NCBI GenBank assembly: GCA_025451235.1
Contig: JANWKT010000013.1
Location: 81,317-145,316, forward strand
Direction of reading: 5' to 3'
Origin: Flavobacteriales bacterium
Lineage (GTDB): Bacteria > Bacteroidota > Bacteroidia > CAIKAF01
DNA: 64,000 nucleotides
The position numbers and the translations under genes are program-made. Below the pieces are notes generated by a model that did not search any database, was not told the origin of the DNA, and worked only from the letters and a program-made list of their open reading frames with translations. Positions 46,411 through 57,062 of the stretch are shown here, one piece after another; position 1 is the stretch's first letter, and the number at the start of each line of letters is the position of its first letter.

Positions 46411-46597
46411 ATATGCTGCTGTATGCAGAAATGTTTTTGAATAGGTAGGTATGTGGGAATGGTGAGTGATGGGGGCTTAGATTTGTGTACAACGAAAGTA
46501 GGATTTTTTGAGGAATTCCTGGTTTGTCGTCCAGCTGATGTTTTTTTTAGTTCCCGTAGACGTTTTTATCTGATTTGGCTGTGGGCTCGTGTGGTTT

Positions 46598-46775
46598 GTT
46601 CCCGCAGATCTCGCAGATTTTCGCAGGCTTTTTTCTATCGTCACAATACCATTCGGCTGACTGCATTTCGCAGATCAGAGGCGCCACGGCGCCTCATCTG
46701 CGAGATAAGAGCAGCCGAATGGGAAGGCAGGGCAAAAGCCCTTCTTAAGCGAAAATCAGCGAGATCTGCGGGAAC
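46598..46775. repeat. MITE-like small element, copy A
   Basis: Terminal inverted repeats gttcccgcagatctcgcagattt (46598-46620) and aaatcagcgagatctgcgggaac (46753-46775). Internal palindrome tcgcagat..gaggcgcc..ggcgcctc..atctgcga. A second copy lies at 62150-62316. Confidence 0.7.
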
Positions 46776-46880
46776 AAAATGATTATTGCCAACTATGGAC
46801 ATATTCCAGTACAAGAGGTCCGAAGATTTTTAACACTCCTTCCGCCAATTATTTTTAATTTTCTGAACTATCCTGAAAGT

Positions 46881-48625: not shown

Positions 48626-49684
48626 TCATTTTTTAAAAGATTTTTGAAGTCTTTCAAATACTTTCTCCAAAAACAGATAGTTAACATCAAATTCATTTGA
48701 TACTGAGAATTCATAAAGTATATAATGATTCACCTCGTGCAAAATACTAATAGTGAATTGCATTGGATCAATGAATGCTTTTAATTCAATATCTTGATCT
48801 AACAATTTTGGTAAAACTATTTTGTTCCTAGTCATGAATTGTTGTAATCCATTGAAGTTTGAATGAATTTGTTCACTACATAGAACATAGTATGGTCGAA
48901 ATCTACTCATTTCAGCTCTTTCTTCAAGAACTCTAAAATCTGCTTTTTTATTTCCTAGAAACAAATCGTCCGCCCATCCAAAATCATTTTTTAAAAAATC
49001 CTTACCATATTTATTTCCGAGTGTCTCTTTAGCTTTATTAAGGTTTATCTCCGTTTTCTTTGGAAGGGGAGGAAACTTTAATGCTTTGTGGTTACTATTG
49101 TAGGCTGCTATCTTTCTTTGAGAATTTCTAATGGAATGCTCGTAGAATTTATTTGAAAGCTCAGCATTATTTTCAAGTGCCAAAACCAGTAGTATAATTG
49201 CATCTTCATACATTGCACGCCAAATAATCATAGCTCCATCTATATATCCACTTACTAATAAGTCAACAATTTCCTGAGCCCTTCTCAACATTAAGCCGTA
49301 TAAGGAAATGTTTATTTTTAAGGTACTGTCAATTCGCTTCCTATTTACCTTAACACTGATTTGCTCATACATATTTGCACAGGCTGTAATGTAAAGGATG
49401 AATGAAATGAAAGAGTCTCTATTATTCTGGACTATTGCACGTTGATTTTTGAAATGAACCTTTAAAAAGTCATCAATTTTAAAGTTGTGGTTTTCTAAAT
49501 AGGTATTTGTTAAAATATCCTCGTAGTCAGATATTATACCATCAAGATTTGATGCAATTTTCTGTGCTATTTCCTTTTCTGAAAGCTTGGATGTGCTAAT
49601 AAGATTAATTAATGTGCTATTAAGGATTTCGCTAAAGTCTTCAAAAAAGAGACCTTCTATTTCTACTTGTTTATATCGTCCCAA
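48626..49684 (-). CDS. Hypothetical protein (unknown family), last gene of 4-gene AT-rich operon
   Basis: 352 aa. No recognisable motif. Codon usage is AT-rich and unlike the flanking genes. Confidence 0.55.
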   Translation of the reverse strand: MGRYKQVEIEGLFFEDFSEILNSTLINLISTSKLSEKEIAQKIASNLDGIISDYEDILTNTYLENHNFKIDDFLKVHFKNQRAIVQNNRDSFISFILYITACANMYEQISVKVNRKRIDSTLKINISLYGLMLRRAQEIVDLLVSGYIDGAMIIWRAMYEDAIILLVLALENNAELSNKFYEHSIRNSQRKIAAYNSNHKALKFPPLPKKTEINLNKAKETLGNKYGKDFLKNDFGWADDLFLGNKKADFRVLEERAEMSRFRPYYVLCSEQIHSNFNGLQQFMTRNKIVLPKLLDQDIELKAFIDPMQFTISILHEVNHYILYEFSVSNEFDVNYLFLEKVFERLQKSFKK

Positions 49685-49709: not shown

Positions 49710-50480
49710 TCATTTTTTACCCTTTTCTAATAAAGGCAAAATAGTACTTTTTAATGTCAGCAGCATATACGGTCTTTTAACCTTTCCCTCTTTTAAATAT
49801 TTACTAATAACTCTTGTGACGCCTAAAAAGGATTCTTCAGTATGTTTTTTTGCGTTCAAATATTCCTTCCTTTTAATCTCCCTAGGGTATGACCAATTTG
49901 TACCATCAATATCAACATAAAAGCAATGTTCTTTAATTTGCTGAGCATTTGAAAGCCAATCTTTCTTCTCAATTATAGTTTTGCTCGGTGTTTTTGGTCC
50001 TAATTTTGATTGAATTTCTGCTGTTTGGGTTGCGTTTGCCATTGTCTGACCAATACGTTTAATGTAATTCTCAATCGATTCTCCTTCCCTAATCTGTAAA
50101 TTGTCTTTCTCTGTTAGAATAAAACTATTGATTTTACCATCGAAGTCAATTTTTTTAAGATTTCTGTGGATATGATTGAAAGCACTGGCAATATGAAGGC
50201 GAGTTTCGTGTATATTCTTATATCCTTTGACTTTTTTAAACCCGTAATCTATAAATTCTTTATCCCTAACCCCTATTAAGAAAAAAAATAAAGATTGCGC
50301 TTTTATTAATTCCTCAATCGTAAGCAACTTTAAAGCTGTTGCAAGCGGATATTTTTTCTTAGTTGCCAAGATATCGGCCGCATTGCTAAGATCTCTTGCA
50401 TTTGTATAAATAACCTCTAAGCCATCCTCGATAGTTTCTTCATCAAGCCTTAAAAGAATTTCATAACTAAGTTTCACCAT
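49710..50480 (-). CDS. AbiV-like (abortive infection) family protein, tentative
   Basis: N-terminal 'YTNARDLSNAADILATKKKYPLATALKLLTIEELIKAQSL' resembles the AbiV/Abi_2 N-terminal consensus (NA.rLl.DA..L...YpsA.aLailAiEE.gKa). Confidence 0.5.
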   Translation of the reverse strand: MVKLSYEILLRLDEETIEDGLEVIYTNARDLSNAADILATKKKYPLATALKLLTIEELIKAQSLFFFLIGVRDKEFIDYGFKKVKGYKNIHETRLHIASAFNHIHRNLKKIDFDGKINSFILTEKDNLQIREGESIENYIKRIGQTMANATQTAEIQSKLGPKTPSKTIIEKKDWLSNAQQIKEHCFYVDIDGTNWSYPREIKRKEYLNAKKHTEESFLGVTRVISKYLKEGKVKRPYMLLTLKSTILPLLEKGKK

Positions 50481-50506: not shown

Positions 50507-51916
50507 TTAATATTTTGTTTTATTAGCATACCCATTAATTATTAGAGCAATCATAATCCAGCCAAAAAAGGTTTCACTTCCGACGAGCAATTTTATCTGG
50601 TTACTATATTCGGCTAAATTAACTCCACCTATTCGAACGAATCCAAAAATCGCATTATATAATCCGTCTATCCAGCTTTCGGAAATTCCCACCAAATAAT
50701 AAACAAAGGAGTAAGCAATAATGACCAATATTGAGTTATAAATAAGTCGATGGGGCTTCTCTCCAAATCCCCATAAAAGATAATTACATATGCCCAAGAA
50801 ACTCAAACGAATTTGTTGAATGCATCTAAAAAACTCCCTTTTCAATCGTAATAGTGTGCCTCGATTTTGTCTTCTGTTCTTACCTAGTTTATAATGGCCC
50901 CAAAAGGTATTAATACTTGCAATTGTGGAAAACAGTTCGAATTTACGTTCAAAGTAATGTGATTCCTTTGTTCGCTTTCTGTCTCCCTGTCTTGAATAGG
51001 CTATTCTGAATTTGACAAAATTGTCTGCAATATATCGATAAGTGCTTGCTTTAGTAGAGTAAAAATCTCTCTTCATAGGAATATATTTGACTTCCTCAAT
51101 ATAACTATTTTGCAAATCAATTCGATTCATTGAAATCTCGTCAAACGTAACATATCTTAATTCACTATTCTTACAAGTCATGCTCCACAAATTCCCATTA
51201 TGAAAATGCGTAGCGTATATTTCTGAACTATTTTCCAGTTTCAGATTTTGAAAATCACATTCAACAAGATTTAGGGAGCTTAATTTCCCATCATTAAGTC
51301 TAATATTGTGTGCATGAGCAAAATATATACTATGCATTATATTGCCGTGATCTGGACCTTCAATAGTCAAAAAATCCAAATTGGTAAAGTCAAGATTTCG
51401 TCTATTTATTCTGTACCCTCGTGTAATAGTTAAGCCACCAAGTTTTAGCACATAGTGACCCATCATTTTCCATTGGCAAAGATCTGGAACATCTGGAGCA
51501 TGTCCTGAACCATATAGCAACTTAGTATTCTTGCCCGGTAGGAAATGTCTAGTTTTATACTTTCTTTGACCCCATAAGATATATGGCGTAAATCTTTGAT
51601 AAATATGATTTTTTTCTTTAGCTCTCCTTTCGACTTCTTTTGCAGCCTGCGTTGATTGTGGATGAACAAAATAATATCGATCGTCTGGATGATTTTCCGA
51701 GAAATCGATTAAATATTTATCATATTCCCCATGAAATAATTCTCCAGGATTTCTGATTTTCACAAGGGTGTCAATCAGAAAATTATTTTCACTAAGCCAA
51801 TCGCCAAAACCCGGAAGATTTTTTTCGAAGGACATGAATAGTTTCGGCAAATCATTCTTTTCTCTCCAAAGATTGAATTCATCAGTAGGAAGGTCCCATA
51901 GTTCTTGAGGAGTCAT
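50507..51916 (-). CDS. Pentapeptide-repeat protein fused to C-terminal 2-TM pore-like (Ion_trans_2-like) domain
   Basis: 469 aa. Central pentapeptide-like repeats ('NLDFTNLDFLT', 'LSSLNLVECDFQNLKLENS', 'MNRIDLQNSYIEEV'). C-terminus has TM1 'LIYNSILVIIAYSFVYYLVGI', pore-helix-like 'WIDGLYNAIFGFVRIGGVN' (compare K-channel 'F.DALYFS.VT.TTVGYGD') and TM2 'FFGWIMIALIINGY'. Confidence 0.55.
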   Translation of the reverse strand: MTPQELWDLPTDEFNLWREKNDLPKLFMSFEKNLPGFGDWLSENNFLIDTLVKIRNPGELFHGEYDKYLIDFSENHPDDRYYFVHPQSTQAAKEVERRAKEKNHIYQRFTPYILWGQRKYKTRHFLPGKNTKLLYGSGHAPDVPDLCQWKMMGHYVLKLGGLTITRGYRINRRNLDFTNLDFLTIEGPDHGNIMHSIYFAHAHNIRLNDGKLSSLNLVECDFQNLKLENSSEIYATHFHNGNLWSMTCKNSELRYVTFDEISMNRIDLQNSYIEEVKYIPMKRDFYSTKASTYRYIADNFVKFRIAYSRQGDRKRTKESHYFERKFELFSTIASINTFWGHYKLGKNRRQNRGTLLRLKREFFRCIQQIRLSFLGICNYLLWGFGEKPHRLIYNSILVIIAYSFVYYLVGISESWIDGLYNAIFGFVRIGGVNLAEYSNQIKLLVGSETFFGWIMIALIINGYANKTKY

Positions 51917-51944: not shown

Positions 51945-52568
51945 CTATCTAATGCGTTTTTCGATAGGCATTCGAACTATTCTGGCCACACCTTTGTCAA
52001 ACTTGGCTAGAGAAATATTGGGAAAGGTAAGATAATCTTCCTTTCCTTCATTCTCATCGGTAATGCTACTATCATTTATCAGAGATTTTCCTTTGGTTTT
52101 AAAAGCACGATTATAATAAACCAAGCTGTCCCTGTTAGAATGAATCATTACCAAGATATTTTCCTTGGGAACTAGCTTTTCTATTTTAAAGTAACAGTCC
52201 TTAAAAAAAGGTCCATTTTCTTTGTATGTAAAGTCAATATTGCCATTAGGAGCTAGTTGTATTTGGTCCCCAACCAACATCTGAATATTTATTTCAATAT
52301 TATTAACCGTATTTTTTGATTGATTTGTCACTAAATAATTAGTTGTATAGTCCTGATTACTAATGGTTGGTTCTATTTCTACAATATCCAACGAACTTTT
52401 ATAATACCGTTCAGTGAAATATGGAGTTGTTACAACAAGTTGGACAATTGCTACAATTAGTGCAAGAATTGACAATATAAGTGAAACGTTAATTTTATTG
52501 TTCTGATTCTTTTCATGAAGTGCATCAGAAGTTTCAAATTTTATATTGGTCTTTTTCTTTTTACTCAT
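51945..52568 (-). CDS. Hypothetical single-pass membrane protein
   Basis: 207 aa. Basic N-terminus 'MSKKKKTNIKF' then TM 'VSLILSILALIVAIVQLVV'. Confidence 0.5.
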   Translation of the reverse strand: MSKKKKTNIKFETSDALHEKNQNNKINVSLILSILALIVAIVQLVVTTPYFTERYYKSSLDIVEIEPTISNQDYTTNYLVTNQSKNTVNNIEINIQMLVGDQIQLAPNGNIDFTYKENGPFFKDCYFKIEKLVPKENILVMIHSNRDSLVYYNRAFKTKGKSLINDSSITDENEGKEDYLTFPNISLAKFDKGVARIVRMPIEKRIR

Positions 52569-52702: not shown

Positions 52703-53830
52703 TTAATCCGGAATGAAAGGCCTGTGGGCAGAATGGGAGTTAGGCAAAGTGAATTCTTGTTGTAATTTATCTGAGTAATCCCGAAGTCTAATAATCGATT
52801 TCAAAACAAATTTATTATCCGGCTCAACTGAACGCCAGAAGTGCAAATACCCAAACAATCTTTCAAGATATATTGGGTCAAATGAATTAATATGTTTTTG
52901 ATGTTCGAACAATCCTTTCGAAAGGACATAATGAACATTTTTTCTAACTTCTCGCTTAGCTTTTTTCGGAACAGTCATTGTTCCATTGGATATCGAAATC
53001 CCTGTAATAATTTTTTGATTTTTCTCACCAAGCAATTTTGTTTTGGGCTTATTTATATTAAATCCTTCTTCTTCGGTAATTTCTTCAATATATGTTGTCA
53101 TTTTAATTGGTATTGCACCCCCAGAAAAAGTAAAATCATCAGCATACCTGGTATAATTTAGTTTAAATTTATTTGCTAGTCCATTTAATCTTTGATCAAG
53201 TCTTTTTGCTATAATATTGCTTATCGCCGGACTTGTAGCTGCTCCTTGAGGTAGAGCTCGATTCAAACAACAAATTGCGGCTAAGTAGTAGGAGATTCTT
53301 TTTGTGTACCCCAAATTCCGAAAAATTGCAATTACTCGATTTATTTTTATGGATGGAAAAAAATTTTGAATATCCATTTTTAATACAAATTTGGTATTGA
53401 GATGTTCTTTAGCATTGTCAACAATTGAAGTATTTTTGATAAATCCCTTGGAACATTTATGTAATGGTTGGTGAATTAGGATGTTCTCGTAAATCCACTT
53501 TTGAGCATGCAATAAAACAGGATAAGGCGCTGAAATTATTCTTTGGCCTCCATTTCTTTTTGGAATCTCAAAAGTATAATAAAAGCTATTGGATTTCATC
53601 ACTATACTCGAAAGCACTTCCCTCTGAATGCCCAGTAATGAGGCTAAATGGTTAAAATCCAAAATTATTACGGTGTTATTCGAAATGAGTTTTTGCACAT
53701 AAATTGATAGTGCCTTTTGAGTTTTTTCACCTCTTACATTTTTCGAGATGAAATCAACCCATTTTTCGATTTGTATTTTTTTATCTTCTAGCATGGTAAT
53801 AAAAAATGAGGATGGGAAAACTACTTTCAA
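52703..53830 (-). CDS. Retron-type reverse transcriptase
   Basis: Collinear with Ec86 RT. 'RNGGQRIISAP' (RT1-2). 'KMDIQNFFPSI' (compare Ec86 NIDLEDFFPSL). 'LPQGAATSPAISN' (compare LPQGAPSSPKLAN). 'YTRYADDFTFSG' (YADD catalytic box). Retron thumb 'QKIITGISIS' (compare RKVTGLVIS). The annotated start is TTG; an in-frame ATG at ~53794 (MLEDKK...) is more likely. Confidence 0.9.
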   Translation of the reverse strand: MKVVFPSSFFITMLEDKKIQIEKWVDFISKNVRGEKTQKALSIYVQKLISNNTVIILDFNHLASLLGIQREVLSSIVMKSNSFYYTFEIPKRNGGQRIISAPYPVLLHAQKWIYENILIHQPLHKCSKGFIKNTSIVDNAKEHLNTKFVLKMDIQNFFPSIKINRVIAIFRNLGYTKRISYYLAAICCLNRALPQGAATSPAISNIIAKRLDQRLNGLANKFKLNYTRYADDFTFSGGAIPIKMTTYIEEITEEEGFNINKPKTKLLGEKNQKIITGISISNGTMTVPKKAKREVRKNVHYVLSKGLFEHQKHINSFDPIYLERLFGYLHFWRSVEPDNKFVLKSIIRLRDYSDKLQQEFTLPNSHSAHRPFIPD

Positions 53831-53974
53831 TGAAATTTATTCATACTACTAAATCCTACAACGTAGATTTAGTAGTGCAGTTCTGTTAGGAACTTCACTA
53901 GTGCCTTTTTCAGGTACTAGTGTGGTTAACCACAGCATTAATAAATGAGGCGAATACACCTCAATGTGCTAGTT
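53831..53974 (-). ncRNA. Candidate retron msr/msd non-coding RNA region
   Basis: A 144 nt gap (up to ~180 nt if the RT starts at 53794) between the WH gene stop and the RT. It holds hairpins actactaaatc-N10-gatttagtagt (53845-53876), cactagtgcc-ttttt-caggtactagtg (53896-53922) and the palindrome tggttaacca (53923-53932). The a1/a2 repeats were not resolved by eye. Confidence 0.5.
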
Positions 53975-54337
53975 TCATTTCCCATCCTCAATGTTTTTAA
54001 AAATTTCTTTATCCAAAGTTTTTCGATTTGGTATGTATAACTCATTTATACCCAAAATAGGTTGTTTCATGTTTTCAGGAATTAGTTTCCAGTATTTGAC
54101 GTTTTCACGTAAAAATATATATTTTCTATTCCCAAATATCCAATTGCGCCCATATTCGTTAAGGGTTATTTGATTACCACTAATAACTATTAACCCATTA
54201 TCTTCAAATTTTTGTATTGTTCTCGCAAGTTGAAAAGGAGATAGCTGGTATTTTTCATGAAAAAAATACAAATCCAAACTGTTTTGGGCATATAATTCTT
54301 TGAGGAACTCAATATCCTCGCTTAATAATTCTATCAT
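53975..54337 (-). CDS. Small winged-helix-like DNA-binding protein (retron accessory)
   Basis: 120 aa. 'LSPFQLARTIQKFEDNGLIVISGNQITL' has the HTH + wing pattern. A 4-bp overlap (ATGA) with the upstream PRTase-like gene suggests translational coupling. Confidence 0.6.
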   Translation of the reverse strand: MIELLSEDIEFLKELYAQNSLDLYFFHEKYQLSPFQLARTIQKFEDNGLIVISGNQITLNEYGRNWIFGNRKYIFLRENVKYWKLIPENMKQPILGINELYIPNRKTLDKEIFKNIEDGK

Positions 54338-55191
54338 ATCCGTCTAAAAAGTGTTTTTCTTTGAATCCCCCCTTTATAAAAGGGCCACCAAAATATTGGG
54401 AATACATTATTCGGAACATTATTGGCTTCGAAGCCAAATAGGGCTTCTGACCTTTTATATCCGAAATTGGGGAGTTTTCTACTCCCAATTTTATTCTTTA
54501 ATTTACTTTCAAGATTCTCCATGGATTTTTTAGCTGAAGGCCTGTTTTCTGCCTCCATTATCTCACTAATCCCTTTCTTCAACCAAAAAACTGAGTAATA
54601 TTCCATGTACAATTTATCTAATACATCTTTGGAAAACTCCATAGCGGCTAGGCTAATAGTTCTAACGGTTACATTGGTAAGTTGGCGTTTTTCTATTGTT
54701 GAACGCATGTATTTTACTTTTCGCTCAATTGTATCACCTGTTCCAATGAAGTCGTCCGTTAGTATAACATTTGAATTGTCTGGAATTTCATTAGCTCCAA
54801 TCGGTAACGAGTTAAAAAAATTAGATTCCTTCCAATTCATAGAGAATTTATTTTTTAGACATTGTATAATACTTTGGGATCCGTCTGGGTTTTTATCGTC
54901 ACACGTAGCAATAAGAAAAGTACTTTCTGAAGTTAAACCCCAATTTGTTTCGATTTGAGCTGCAATGCTCTTACCTGCCTCATTTAATGTTTGTCCATCA
55001 ACGAAGGAAAAGTTCTTTATTAGGAATTCAATTAAATCTTTTTGGTCTTTATTATCCGATAGACACCATAATTCAAAGAGTGCTTCTGGCTCATATGAAA
55101 GCCACTTGTACTCTTTGTGTAATTTAGTTAAAGTGACAAAATCGTTAACGTCAATTTTGCCAGATGCTCTATTTACAATCTCTTCATTCAT
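54334..55191 (-). CDS. Phosphoribosyltransferase (PRTase)-like protein (retron effector candidate)
   Basis: 285 aa. PRPP-binding-type motif 'VILTDDFIGTGDTI' (compare 'VLLVDDVITTGST'). Confidence 0.65.
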   Translation of the reverse strand: MNEEIVNRASGKIDVNDFVTLTKLHKEYKWLSYEPEALFELWCLSDNKDQKDLIEFLIKNFSFVDGQTLNEAGKSIAAQIETNWGLTSESTFLIATCDDKNPDGSQSIIQCLKNKFSMNWKESNFFNSLPIGANEIPDNSNVILTDDFIGTGDTIERKVKYMRSTIEKRQLTNVTVRTISLAAMEFSKDVLDKLYMEYYSVFWLKKGISEIMEAENRPSAKKSMENLESKLKNKIGSRKLPNFGYKRSEALFGFEANNVPNNVFPIFWWPFYKGGIQRKTLFRRI

Positions 55192-55339
55192 TCTTTATCA
55201 TTTTGCCTAACTACGGATTACCGTAATCATACAAACGTTTACAAACCTCTATTTTCGTTTGTAAGCACTTGTATAATGGCTTTCCTATATCAATAGTATA
55301 GAATAAAGAGCAAATATAAAAGCAGGGAGGCATCCGTAT

Positions 55340-55379
55340 TTTCCCGGATACCTCTACCTAATGTTGGGTATCCGGGAAA
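55340..55379. promoter_or_regulatory. 13-bp perfect inverted repeat upstream of retron operon (operator or terminator of the upstream gene)
   Basis: tttcccggatacc-N14-ggtatccgggaaa. A Bacteroidetes-type -7 box candidate TAtaTTTG (minus strand, complement of 55311-55318) lies between it and the PRTase start. Confidence 0.4.
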
Positions 55380-55422
55380 TATGGATGGGATCCAGGCCGG
55401 GGCGGCTTGGGAATAGAAGTTG

Positions 55423-56634: not shown

Positions 56635-56819
56635 TTTTCATTTTTTAAAATTGCTCTAGTTGTCCGGCTTTAAGTGAAGCCCCCGTTTTTTTAGGTGGGT
56701 TCTGATCTCCACTTTGTTGGTTGTGATAAGGATCTATTCGATGTGAATAGTTGGTAGTATAAGACAACAAGGTAACTGAATTACTTTCTATTGGGTCATG
56801 ATCCAAACAATTTAATCAC

Positions 56820-57055
56820 AACTGTAACATACGAACGCTGCTGTAAGGCTTCGACCAAACTGTATTAGGTTTGATCTCAACGAAGTACGAAATGGTACGA
56901 GCCTACGAACTACGAACAAAGCAGTGGAGCTTCGACCGAGTTGTTACGGGGTTAACCACAACGAAGTACGAACCTATACGAACATACGAACTACGAATAA
57001 GGTTAGCATCGGTTCGTAGTTCGTAGGTTCGTATGTTTTGTTCGTACTTCGGTGA
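56820..57055. repeat. Composite 'tacgaac' repeat region: two ~45 bp direct repeats plus a ~36 bp imperfect hairpin
   Basis: Direct repeats ggcttcgaccaaact..caacgaagtacgaa / agcttcgaccgagtt..caacgaagtacgaa. Hairpin cgaagtacgaacctatacgaacatacgaactacgaa-N15-ttcgtagttcgtaggttcgtatgttttgttcgtacttcg. Confidence 0.6.
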
Positions 57056-57062
57056 AAACAAA

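Follow-up and report, generated by a model that had tools for sequence, protein, structure and literature searches.

We describe here a gene on the minus strand of a 64,000-nucleotide (nt) stretch of DNA from a Flavobacteriales bacterium (assembly GCA_025451235.1, contig JANWKT010000013.1; the whole stretch is called the window), encoding a 469-residue protein with a pentapeptide-type beta-helix and a two-transmembrane (two-TM) pore related to that of K+ channels. From the fold predicted for this protein, the sequences of its relatives and the genes found around them, we favor, with moderate confidence, the view that the gene specifies a stand-alone membrane effector of the type of HalA, the channel by which the anti-phage system Hailong kills infected cells or halts them. 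By analogy with HalA, the protein would be a channel extended at its N-terminus and devoid of the partner HalB, belonging to a single-gene family, so far without annotation, with a probable effector role in abortive infection. An earlier note on the gene, made from the sequence alone, had guessed at a membrane effector of the abortive-infection kind, a guess that fits well with HalA being the sole strong structural match of the protein.

Hailong was described in 2025 (Tan et al. 2025, Nature 643:794, as summarised in PMC13434031). It is a two-gene "guard", with HalB, a Pol-beta-type nucleotidyltransferase (NTase), making poly- or oligodeoxyadenylate (oligo-dA); a five-nucleotide oligo-dA, bound wherever two subunits of the HalA tetramer meet in its cytoplasmic crown, holds the channel closed, and a phage exonuclease degrading the oligo-dA frees the channel, leading to membrane depolarisation (PMC13434031, PMC13276650, PMC12265719). 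In this literature, HalA is described as pentapeptide repeats with a K+-channel domain, and HalB as NTase-like and HEPN-like parts; the same source records that DefenseFinder and PADLOC did not yet detect Hailong.

Domain architecture and resemblance to HalA

The open reading frame (ORF) begins with ATG and is intact. An AlphaFold2 (AF2) model of the monomer, built from a 17-sequence alignment (predicted local distance difference test score, pLDDT, 87.2; predicted template modelling score, pTM, 0.80), divides the protein into four parts, namely an N-terminal domain, a pentapeptide-type beta-helix, a basic helical linker and a two-TM pore module (Table 1). When the model was searched against PDB with Foldseek, a single strong match was returned, 9nyi_A, "HalA in complex with oligodeoxyadenylate" (E 7.4e-9, probability 1.0), with 324 aligned columns of the 333-residue target; the other matches were pentapeptide domains at E 3e-4 and weaker. 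Domain order and overall fold are those of HalA, with a pentapeptide beta-helix crown, a helical linker and a two-TM K+-channel-like pore all present in the AF2 model. At the sequence level, 10 of the 17 sequences of the family gave matches to the NCBIfam model NF051894 (anti_phage_HalA), the best at E 1.2e-11, over model positions ~50-335 of 338, a similarity that is weak but consistent over the full length. The window protein itself had no match in PADLOC or NCBIfam; the link to HalA was found only through its relatives and through structure.

The family to which the window protein belongs departs from HalA as follows: 1) the HalA-equivalent part starts only at about residue 128-145, as judged by the NCBIfam alignment of the relative P0009 and by the length of the Foldseek alignment, leaving an extra N-terminal domain of ~125 residues that has no counterpart in HalA; 2) no adjacent HalB was seen in any locus examined, with no NTase gene recognised in the genomic island around the window gene by Pfam, PADLOC or NCBIfam, so that the two-gene operon of HalA and HalB is not found there, and no NTase-like match in NCBIfam or PADLOC among the unannotated genes adjoining the relatives; 3) the family pore is nearer in sequence to those of K2P, NaK and Kv channels than to that of HalA, with HalA not among the best 60 PDB matches of the pore profile.

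The N-terminal domain, which the earlier note had set apart without assigning it a type, is real, with residues 1-125 keeping high pLDDT both alone and within the full model as a self-folding core. Residues 130-178 belong with the beta-helix instead, because they drop in confidence when modelled without it. For the domain itself, there was no significant match among PDB structures (best E 0.6) or viral predicted structures (best E 0.08), and none in Pfam, NCBIfam or PADLOC. A cluster comprising W7, F14, N15, W17, R18, D22, F37, W40, P111, Y112 and W115 is kept in 85-100% of 120 family representatives. We considered whether this domain could be a fused HalB, but it carries no [DE]h[DE] motif on inspection of the sequence and no Pol-beta NTase fold in the PDB structure search, and this idea was ruled out. 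Matches of ~310 residues to a profile of the domain, candidates for its occurrence in other architectures, proved to come from this same gene in truncated or frameshifted form.

In the AF2 model, strands 184-280 (DSSP; pLDDT 88-96) form a right-handed quadrilateral beta-helix, as in the pentapeptide proteins Qnr, MfpA, AlbG/McbG and cyanobacterial Rfr (PF00805, PF13599). The match of the window protein to Pentapeptide_4 (residues 200-258; 24.1 bits vs. a cut-off of 38) stays below the Pfam gathering threshold; the full family profile matched PDB pentapeptide proteins from E 1e-8 (2w7z, AlbG, MfpA and QnrB1, at 1e-8 to 1e-6), and Foldseek aligned the beta-helix with Rfr, with SV2 luminal pentapeptide domains and with Qnr-type structures. 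The pentapeptide-like repeats seen in the earlier note are thus borne out by profile and model. In contrast to the known pentapeptide proteins, the helix here is short (~4-5 coils), has degenerate repeats, is joined in one chain to a membrane pore and gives no sign of gyrase-directed DNA mimicry. The accompanying suggestion of a DNA-mimic sensor is not supported, as HalA, the closest known relative, instead binds inhibitory oligo-dA at the subunit interfaces of its crown (PMC13434031).

Between the beta-helix and the membrane, the linker ends ahead of TM1 in a near-invariant WGFGE.P motif, with W382, G383, G385 and P388 kept in 93-96% of representatives. Its net charge is +15 in the window protein and +10 as the family median. 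Such a strongly basic composition is compatible with nucleic-acid binding, though it is no demonstration of it.

The pore module and its selectivity filter

The C-terminal string singled out in the earlier note, SWIDGLYNAIFGFVRIGGVN, is found in the translation. The AF2 model places TM1 at 389-409, a re-entrant pore helix at 415-427 and TM2 at 439-468, with the filter loop between the pore helix and TM2, and Kyte-Doolittle hydropathy peaks at about 399-407 and 450-453 flank the filter segment. Of the structural features that the earlier note had named as a check, the pore helix and the right-handed quadrilateral beta-helix are present in the AF2 monomer. The order of TM1, pore helix, filter and TM2 is that of the two-TM K+-channel pore (PF07885 Ion_trans_2; e.g. 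NaK, KcsA, K2P, Kir/IRK). A profile built from the family linker and pore region matched PDB structures of K2P, TOK, NaK and Kv channels with E values as low as 1e-12, and precomputed Pfam Ion_trans_2 matches exist for 10 of 17 family members; the window protein itself had no Ion_trans_2 match at E <= 1. The resemblance of the C-terminus to a K+-channel pore, to which the earlier note had pointed, is not due to chance, and derivation of this module from a K+ channel is upheld by family alignment, profiles and predicted topology alike. What differs from K+ channels is the cytoplasmic gate, here the beta-helix and the orphan domain in place of an RCK, KTN or Kir C-terminal domain.

The filter of the window protein also differs. 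In the family alignment, more distant homologues have T-T/L-G-Y/F-G-D at the position of RIGGVN, and a canonical T-x-G-[YF]-G-[DN] filter, such as TTLGYGD, is found in 65 of 120 family representatives, which implies K+ flux through most family members. FVRIGGVN does not fit T-[VTL]-G-[YF]-G-[DN], with a basic residue standing at the second Thr; eight of the 120 representatives have R or K there. The clade of the window protein (P0001-P0006, P0021 and P0041) shares the replacement pattern F-x-[RK]-x-G-x-x-[DN]. In its six closest members (P0001-P0006), TM2 shifts in step from "GAF..GL.VAG" to "GW...L.I[NS]G", and the clade retains the pore helix, the TM2 glycine and the C-terminal GYANK.KY motif. 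Because the replacement pattern is conserved, TM2 co-varies with it and these pore elements are retained, the change looks like selected remodelling and not decay. The earlier note was right that FVRIGGVN takes the place of the canonical filter, but its term "degenerate" undersells this conserved remodelling. Judging from NaK-type filters, with which P0009 can be aligned, the F-x-[RK]-x-G-x-x-[DN] filter most likely abolishes K+ selectivity, and the pore would be non-selective or otherwise altered.

The family, its hosts and its genomic surroundings

The window protein has 16 full-length homologues with 26-46% identity (E 1e-23 to 1e-133), and an exhaustive profile search yielded 158 representatives of clusters defined at 50% identity (E <= 1e-30), ~120 of them full-length proteins of 440-530 residues with the same architecture. 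Hosts are scattered, including Flavobacteriales, Chitinophagaceae, Dyadobacter, Sphingomonas, a Bosea metagenome-assembled genome (MAG), Aeromonas, Clostridium ljungdahlii, a Peribacteria MAG and a MAG labelled archaeal. An all-versus-all BLAST of the ORFs from the 16 related loci disclosed no neighbour conserved across 13 independent loci, and the neighbours of the window gene had no homologue in these 16 loci. On this sequence evidence, the family behaves as a stand-alone single gene.

Like HalA, the family occurs in defence and mobile-element contexts. Relatives were found beside CBASS with TIR-STING (P0009), pPIWI-RE, a type III restriction-modification system with Abi_C and HNH, SLFN/AlbA with integrases and a caspase, UmuDC-like genes with insertion sequence (IS) elements, ArdA with a caspase, PIN-TPR-GreABC, and YhcG nuclease, as well as BrxL together with a Fic toxin-antitoxin pair in C. 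ljungdahlii. At the CBASS locus (L002 4960-7957), the TIR-STING effector has an NTase-type gene on either side, of which one has a CD_NTase_C match alone and the other is a bona fide cGAS-type cyclase. The one NTase seen next to a gene of the family, that beside P0009, was examined as a possible HalB and rejected, being this CBASS cyclase next to its TIR-STING effector.

Five inactivated copies were present among ~20 loci examined: the C. ljungdahlii copy (CP174103, L017 6001-7540), which adjoins BrxL and the Fic pair, has a double frameshift; in the Aeromonas caviae KAM479 copy (NZ_AP026896, L023 7971-9347), the conserved Trp17 is replaced by a stop codon; the L019 and L021 copies are truncated at about residues 272-293 and run directly into an integrase fragment or an IS element; and P0015 has a C-terminal frameshift. 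Recurrent inactivation of this sort is a pattern that would be typical of costly or toxic accessory genes. The family had no match in the phage collection, and its sole match in the plasmid collection was an A. caviae record of chromosome size with the nonsense-mutated copy. This PLSDB record, NZ_AP026896.1, is a 4.94-Mb replicon filed as "plasmid pKAM479_3" with 18 annotated features.

The low-GC island and the neighbouring genes

The channel gene lies in a stretch at ~48-56 kb with a G+C content of 0.32-0.34, vs. ~0.40 in the rest of the window, and with every gene on the minus strand. In the order of transcription, these genes encode a phosphoribosyltransferase (PRTase), a winged-helix protein, a reverse transcriptase (RT), a 207-residue ORF, the channel protein, an AbiV HEPN protein, a DUF5677 protein and a small helix-turn-helix protein. 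From the 207-residue ORF to the DUF5677 gene the intergenic gaps are just 25-28 nt. Scans for consensus promoters and terminators did no better than on shuffled sequence and were uninformative on operon structure.

The PRTase, winged-helix and RT genes make up a complete type III-A retron, as evidenced by PADLOC (PRTase_III-A 1e-87, WH_III-A 4e-17, RT_III-A 6e-133) and by Pfam RVT_1 and PRTase-CE; the proteins have 285, 120 and 375 residues, respectively, the RT with a YADD motif. The RT gene lies 787 nt upstream of the channel start codon, with just the 207-residue ORF between. The earlier note had missed this retron and taken the 207-residue gene for the head of the operon, which it is not in any simple sense, as the retron precedes it. 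The RT, PRTase and winged-helix protein had no homologues in the 16 related loci, and no RT occurred in any listed context. Thus, the retron shares strand and low-GC island with the channel gene but is an independent, complete system, and related loci of the channel family were not seen with retrons. Because its composition is complete for type III-A by PADLOC and no relative of the channel has a retron nearby, its presence beside the channel gene is best explained by defence-island clustering.

Two regions are candidates for the retron noncoding RNA (msr-msd), 53801-53996 (-) and 55192-55422 (-). The 144-nt intergenic region between the winged-helix and RT genes folds with z = -5.4, and a 19-nt inverted repeat (53801-53819 / 53978-53996) encloses it, like the a1/a2 repeats flanking retron noncoding RNAs; the 231-nt region upstream of the PRTase gene folds with z = -5.6. 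Neither region matched any Rfam family, and no retron RNA turned up in the Rfam search.

The putative 207-residue protein, put forward in the earlier note as a partner subunit, is an ORFan: a search among 5.8 billion proteins found only the protein itself, the 16 related loci contain no homologue, and the proposal was accordingly abandoned. The AbiV HEPN and DUF5677 genes follow directly downstream of the channel gene with gaps of 25-26 nt. Neither is conserved beside channel homologues in the 16 related loci, and the pair may form a further defence module.

At the bounds of the low-GC island, we found no tRNA gene and no convincing att-like direct repeats. Repeat-rich intergenic DNA lies close to both edges (window 46595-46778 and 56830-57062), with 30-nt inverted repeats at one edge, and an 81-nt tandem pair together with TACGAAC-rich inverted repeats at the other. 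A sub-threshold Rfam match to DUF805 RNA (56649-56717 (-); 40.1 bits vs. a gathering score of 51.1, E 1.6e-4) sits just upstream of a 403-residue lipoprotein-like ORF.

Table 1. Positions in the window of the channel gene, of its parts and of neighbouring features
Feature	Position	Strand	Remarks
HalA-like channel protein with N-terminal extension, whole gene	50507..51916	-	469 residues; basis: ORF list, homologues, AF2, Foldseek
N-terminal domain, residues ~1-125	51542..51916	-	Family-specific alpha/beta domain, no recognisable relative
Cap and pentapeptide-type right-handed beta-helix, residues ~126-285	51062..51541	-	Includes invariant VLKLGG and RNLDFTNLDFL motifs
Basic helical linker, residues ~286-385	50762..51061	-	Helices 289-310, 313-333 and 348-382 (AF2)
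Two-TM pore module, residues 386-469 and stop	50507..50761	-	TM1, pore helix, filter loop, TM2
Remodelled selectivity-filter segment FVRIGGVN, residues 426-433	50618..50641	-	Aligned to FTTLGYGD of most relatives
207-residue ORF	51945..52568	-	N-terminal TM segment; ORFan; 28 nt upstream of channel gene
Type III-A retron, complete	52703..55191	-	PRTase 54334-55191, winged-helix 53975-54337, RT 52703-53830
AbiV-family HEPN protein	49710-50480	-	Pfam HEPN_AbiV 1.9e-18; NCBIfam AbiV_defense
DUF5677 protein	48626-49684	-	Pfam DUF5677 1.7e-22

Discussion

Going beyond homology and architecture, we infer that four subunits would assemble around a central pore, as in HalA and K+ channels, and that a cytoplasmic crown formed by the beta-helix and linker would keep this pore shut in uninfected cells. 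In this scheme, the N-terminal domain would replace the regulatory or sensing role of the oligo-dA made by HalB, either by sensing a phage cue directly or by locking the crown until a cue arrives. Once opened, the pore would let ions flow, ion gradients or the membrane potential would collapse, and the infected cell would stop growing. In its most explicit form, we offer only tentatively the idea of a one-component system of Hailong type, in which a HalA-like channel dispenses with the DNA signal of HalB and the N-terminal domain of orphan fold acts in cis as its gate, reading the phage cue directly, with the filter of the window clade rebuilt around a ring of Arg or Lys and a different ion selectivity as the outcome. 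A less likely variant of this idea would have the N-terminal domain read single-stranded DNA made by another enzyme, e.g. the multicopy single-stranded DNA (msDNA) of the neighbouring retron.

Several observations weigh against a stand-alone effector of the HalA type. The relatives score 14-43 bits with the HalA equivalog model, vs. its cut-off of 250, and fall far short of it; the window protein has no NF051894 match at E <= 0.1 and reaches no threshold for the HalA, Ion_trans_2 or pentapeptide models. The canonical K+ filter in most members would equally suit an ordinary regulated K+ channel, and some relatives (L010, L012, L014 and Aeromonas) lie among ordinary secreted-protein or housekeeping genes. 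The anti-phage activity, moreover, is deduced from homology and genomic context only. Given that there is no HalB, that an extra N-terminal domain is present, that scores are below the cut-off and that most members have a canonical K+ filter, regulation by oligo-dA as in HalA is unlikely to hold for this family.

Some of these observations would be at home in a channel devoted to ion homeostasis, i.e. an ordinary regulated K+ or cation channel in which the beta-helix and the N-terminal domain serve as a cytoplasmic ligand-sensing gate and phage defence plays no part. The canonical filters, a pore profile matching bona fide K+ channels and the loci lacking nearby defence genes speak for such a channel, but we deem it unlikely, if deserving of serious thought, as evidenced by: 1) the sporadic and broad distribution across Bacteroidota, Alpha- and Gammaproteobacteria, Clostridium, a Peribacteria genome of the candidate phyla radiation and an archaeal MAG; 2) the location of the window copy in a low-GC island, with relatives often near integrases, IS elements and defence systems; 3) recurrent pseudogenisation, together with an anti-phage effector as the closest solved structure. 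A narrower doubt concerns the window clade, whose RIGGVN protein might be non-conducting, a membrane-anchored scaffold or sensor, or else an incipient pseudogene. Its filter is devoid of the T-x-G-Y-G signature, it fails the Ion_trans_2 model, and aberrant filters occur in several other lineages of the family too. NaK-type channels with altered filters still conduct, however, and P0009 aligns to NaK; the ORF is intact and of full length, and the pattern of R/K and G conserved in the clade, the co-varying TM2 and the retained pore motifs point to purifying selection on a modified pore. A dead pore is, in our judgment, quite improbable.

The remaining alternatives tie the channel to its neighbours. 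Four genes on one strand with gaps of 25-28 nt could in principle form a multi-gene system, with the 207-residue TM protein as a subunit or the AbiV HEPN and DUF5677 proteins as regulators, the HEPN protein downstream echoing the NTase-like and HEPN-like make-up described for HalB. We hold this to be very improbable, since the 207-residue protein is an ORFan, none of the three neighbours has a homologue in the 16 related loci, and AbiV is one of the abortive-infection families known to consist of a single gene (NCBIfam AbiV_defense), with no NTase domain (Pfam). Alternatively, the channel could be a local accessory effector of the type III-A retron, with msDNA taking the place of the oligo-dA and closing the channel until it is altered by nucleases or methylases of a phage. 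In favor of this, single-stranded DNA gates HalA (PMC13434031), the RT gene stands upstream on the same strand and structured candidate noncoding RNA regions are at hand. But the PRTase and the winged-helix protein, the canonical partners in type III-A, are both present in the retron, an RT or retron accompanies the channel gene in 0 of ~20 related loci and the family acts as an independent single gene, so that we find this coupling very unlikely.

Returning to the stand-alone HalA-type effector that we favor, the principle of such an effector was already published in 2025, and it is the trigger and the sensor of the window family that are experimentally accessible. A family of ~120 clusters across distant bacterial phyla has the channel but lacks the enzyme, and carries in addition a conserved orphan-fold domain; keeping the channel without HalB would mean that the same effector chassis has been coupled to a different trigger. 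Searches with our versions of Pfam, PADLOC v2 and NCBIfam do not reveal these genes, which are now left unannotated in defence islands. They would give a single-gene handle on how infection gates pores derived from K+ channels and would enlarge the defence repertoire by a new sensor domain, while the natural series of filters, from TTLGYGD to those containing R or K, could be used to test how important ion selectivity is for abortive infection.

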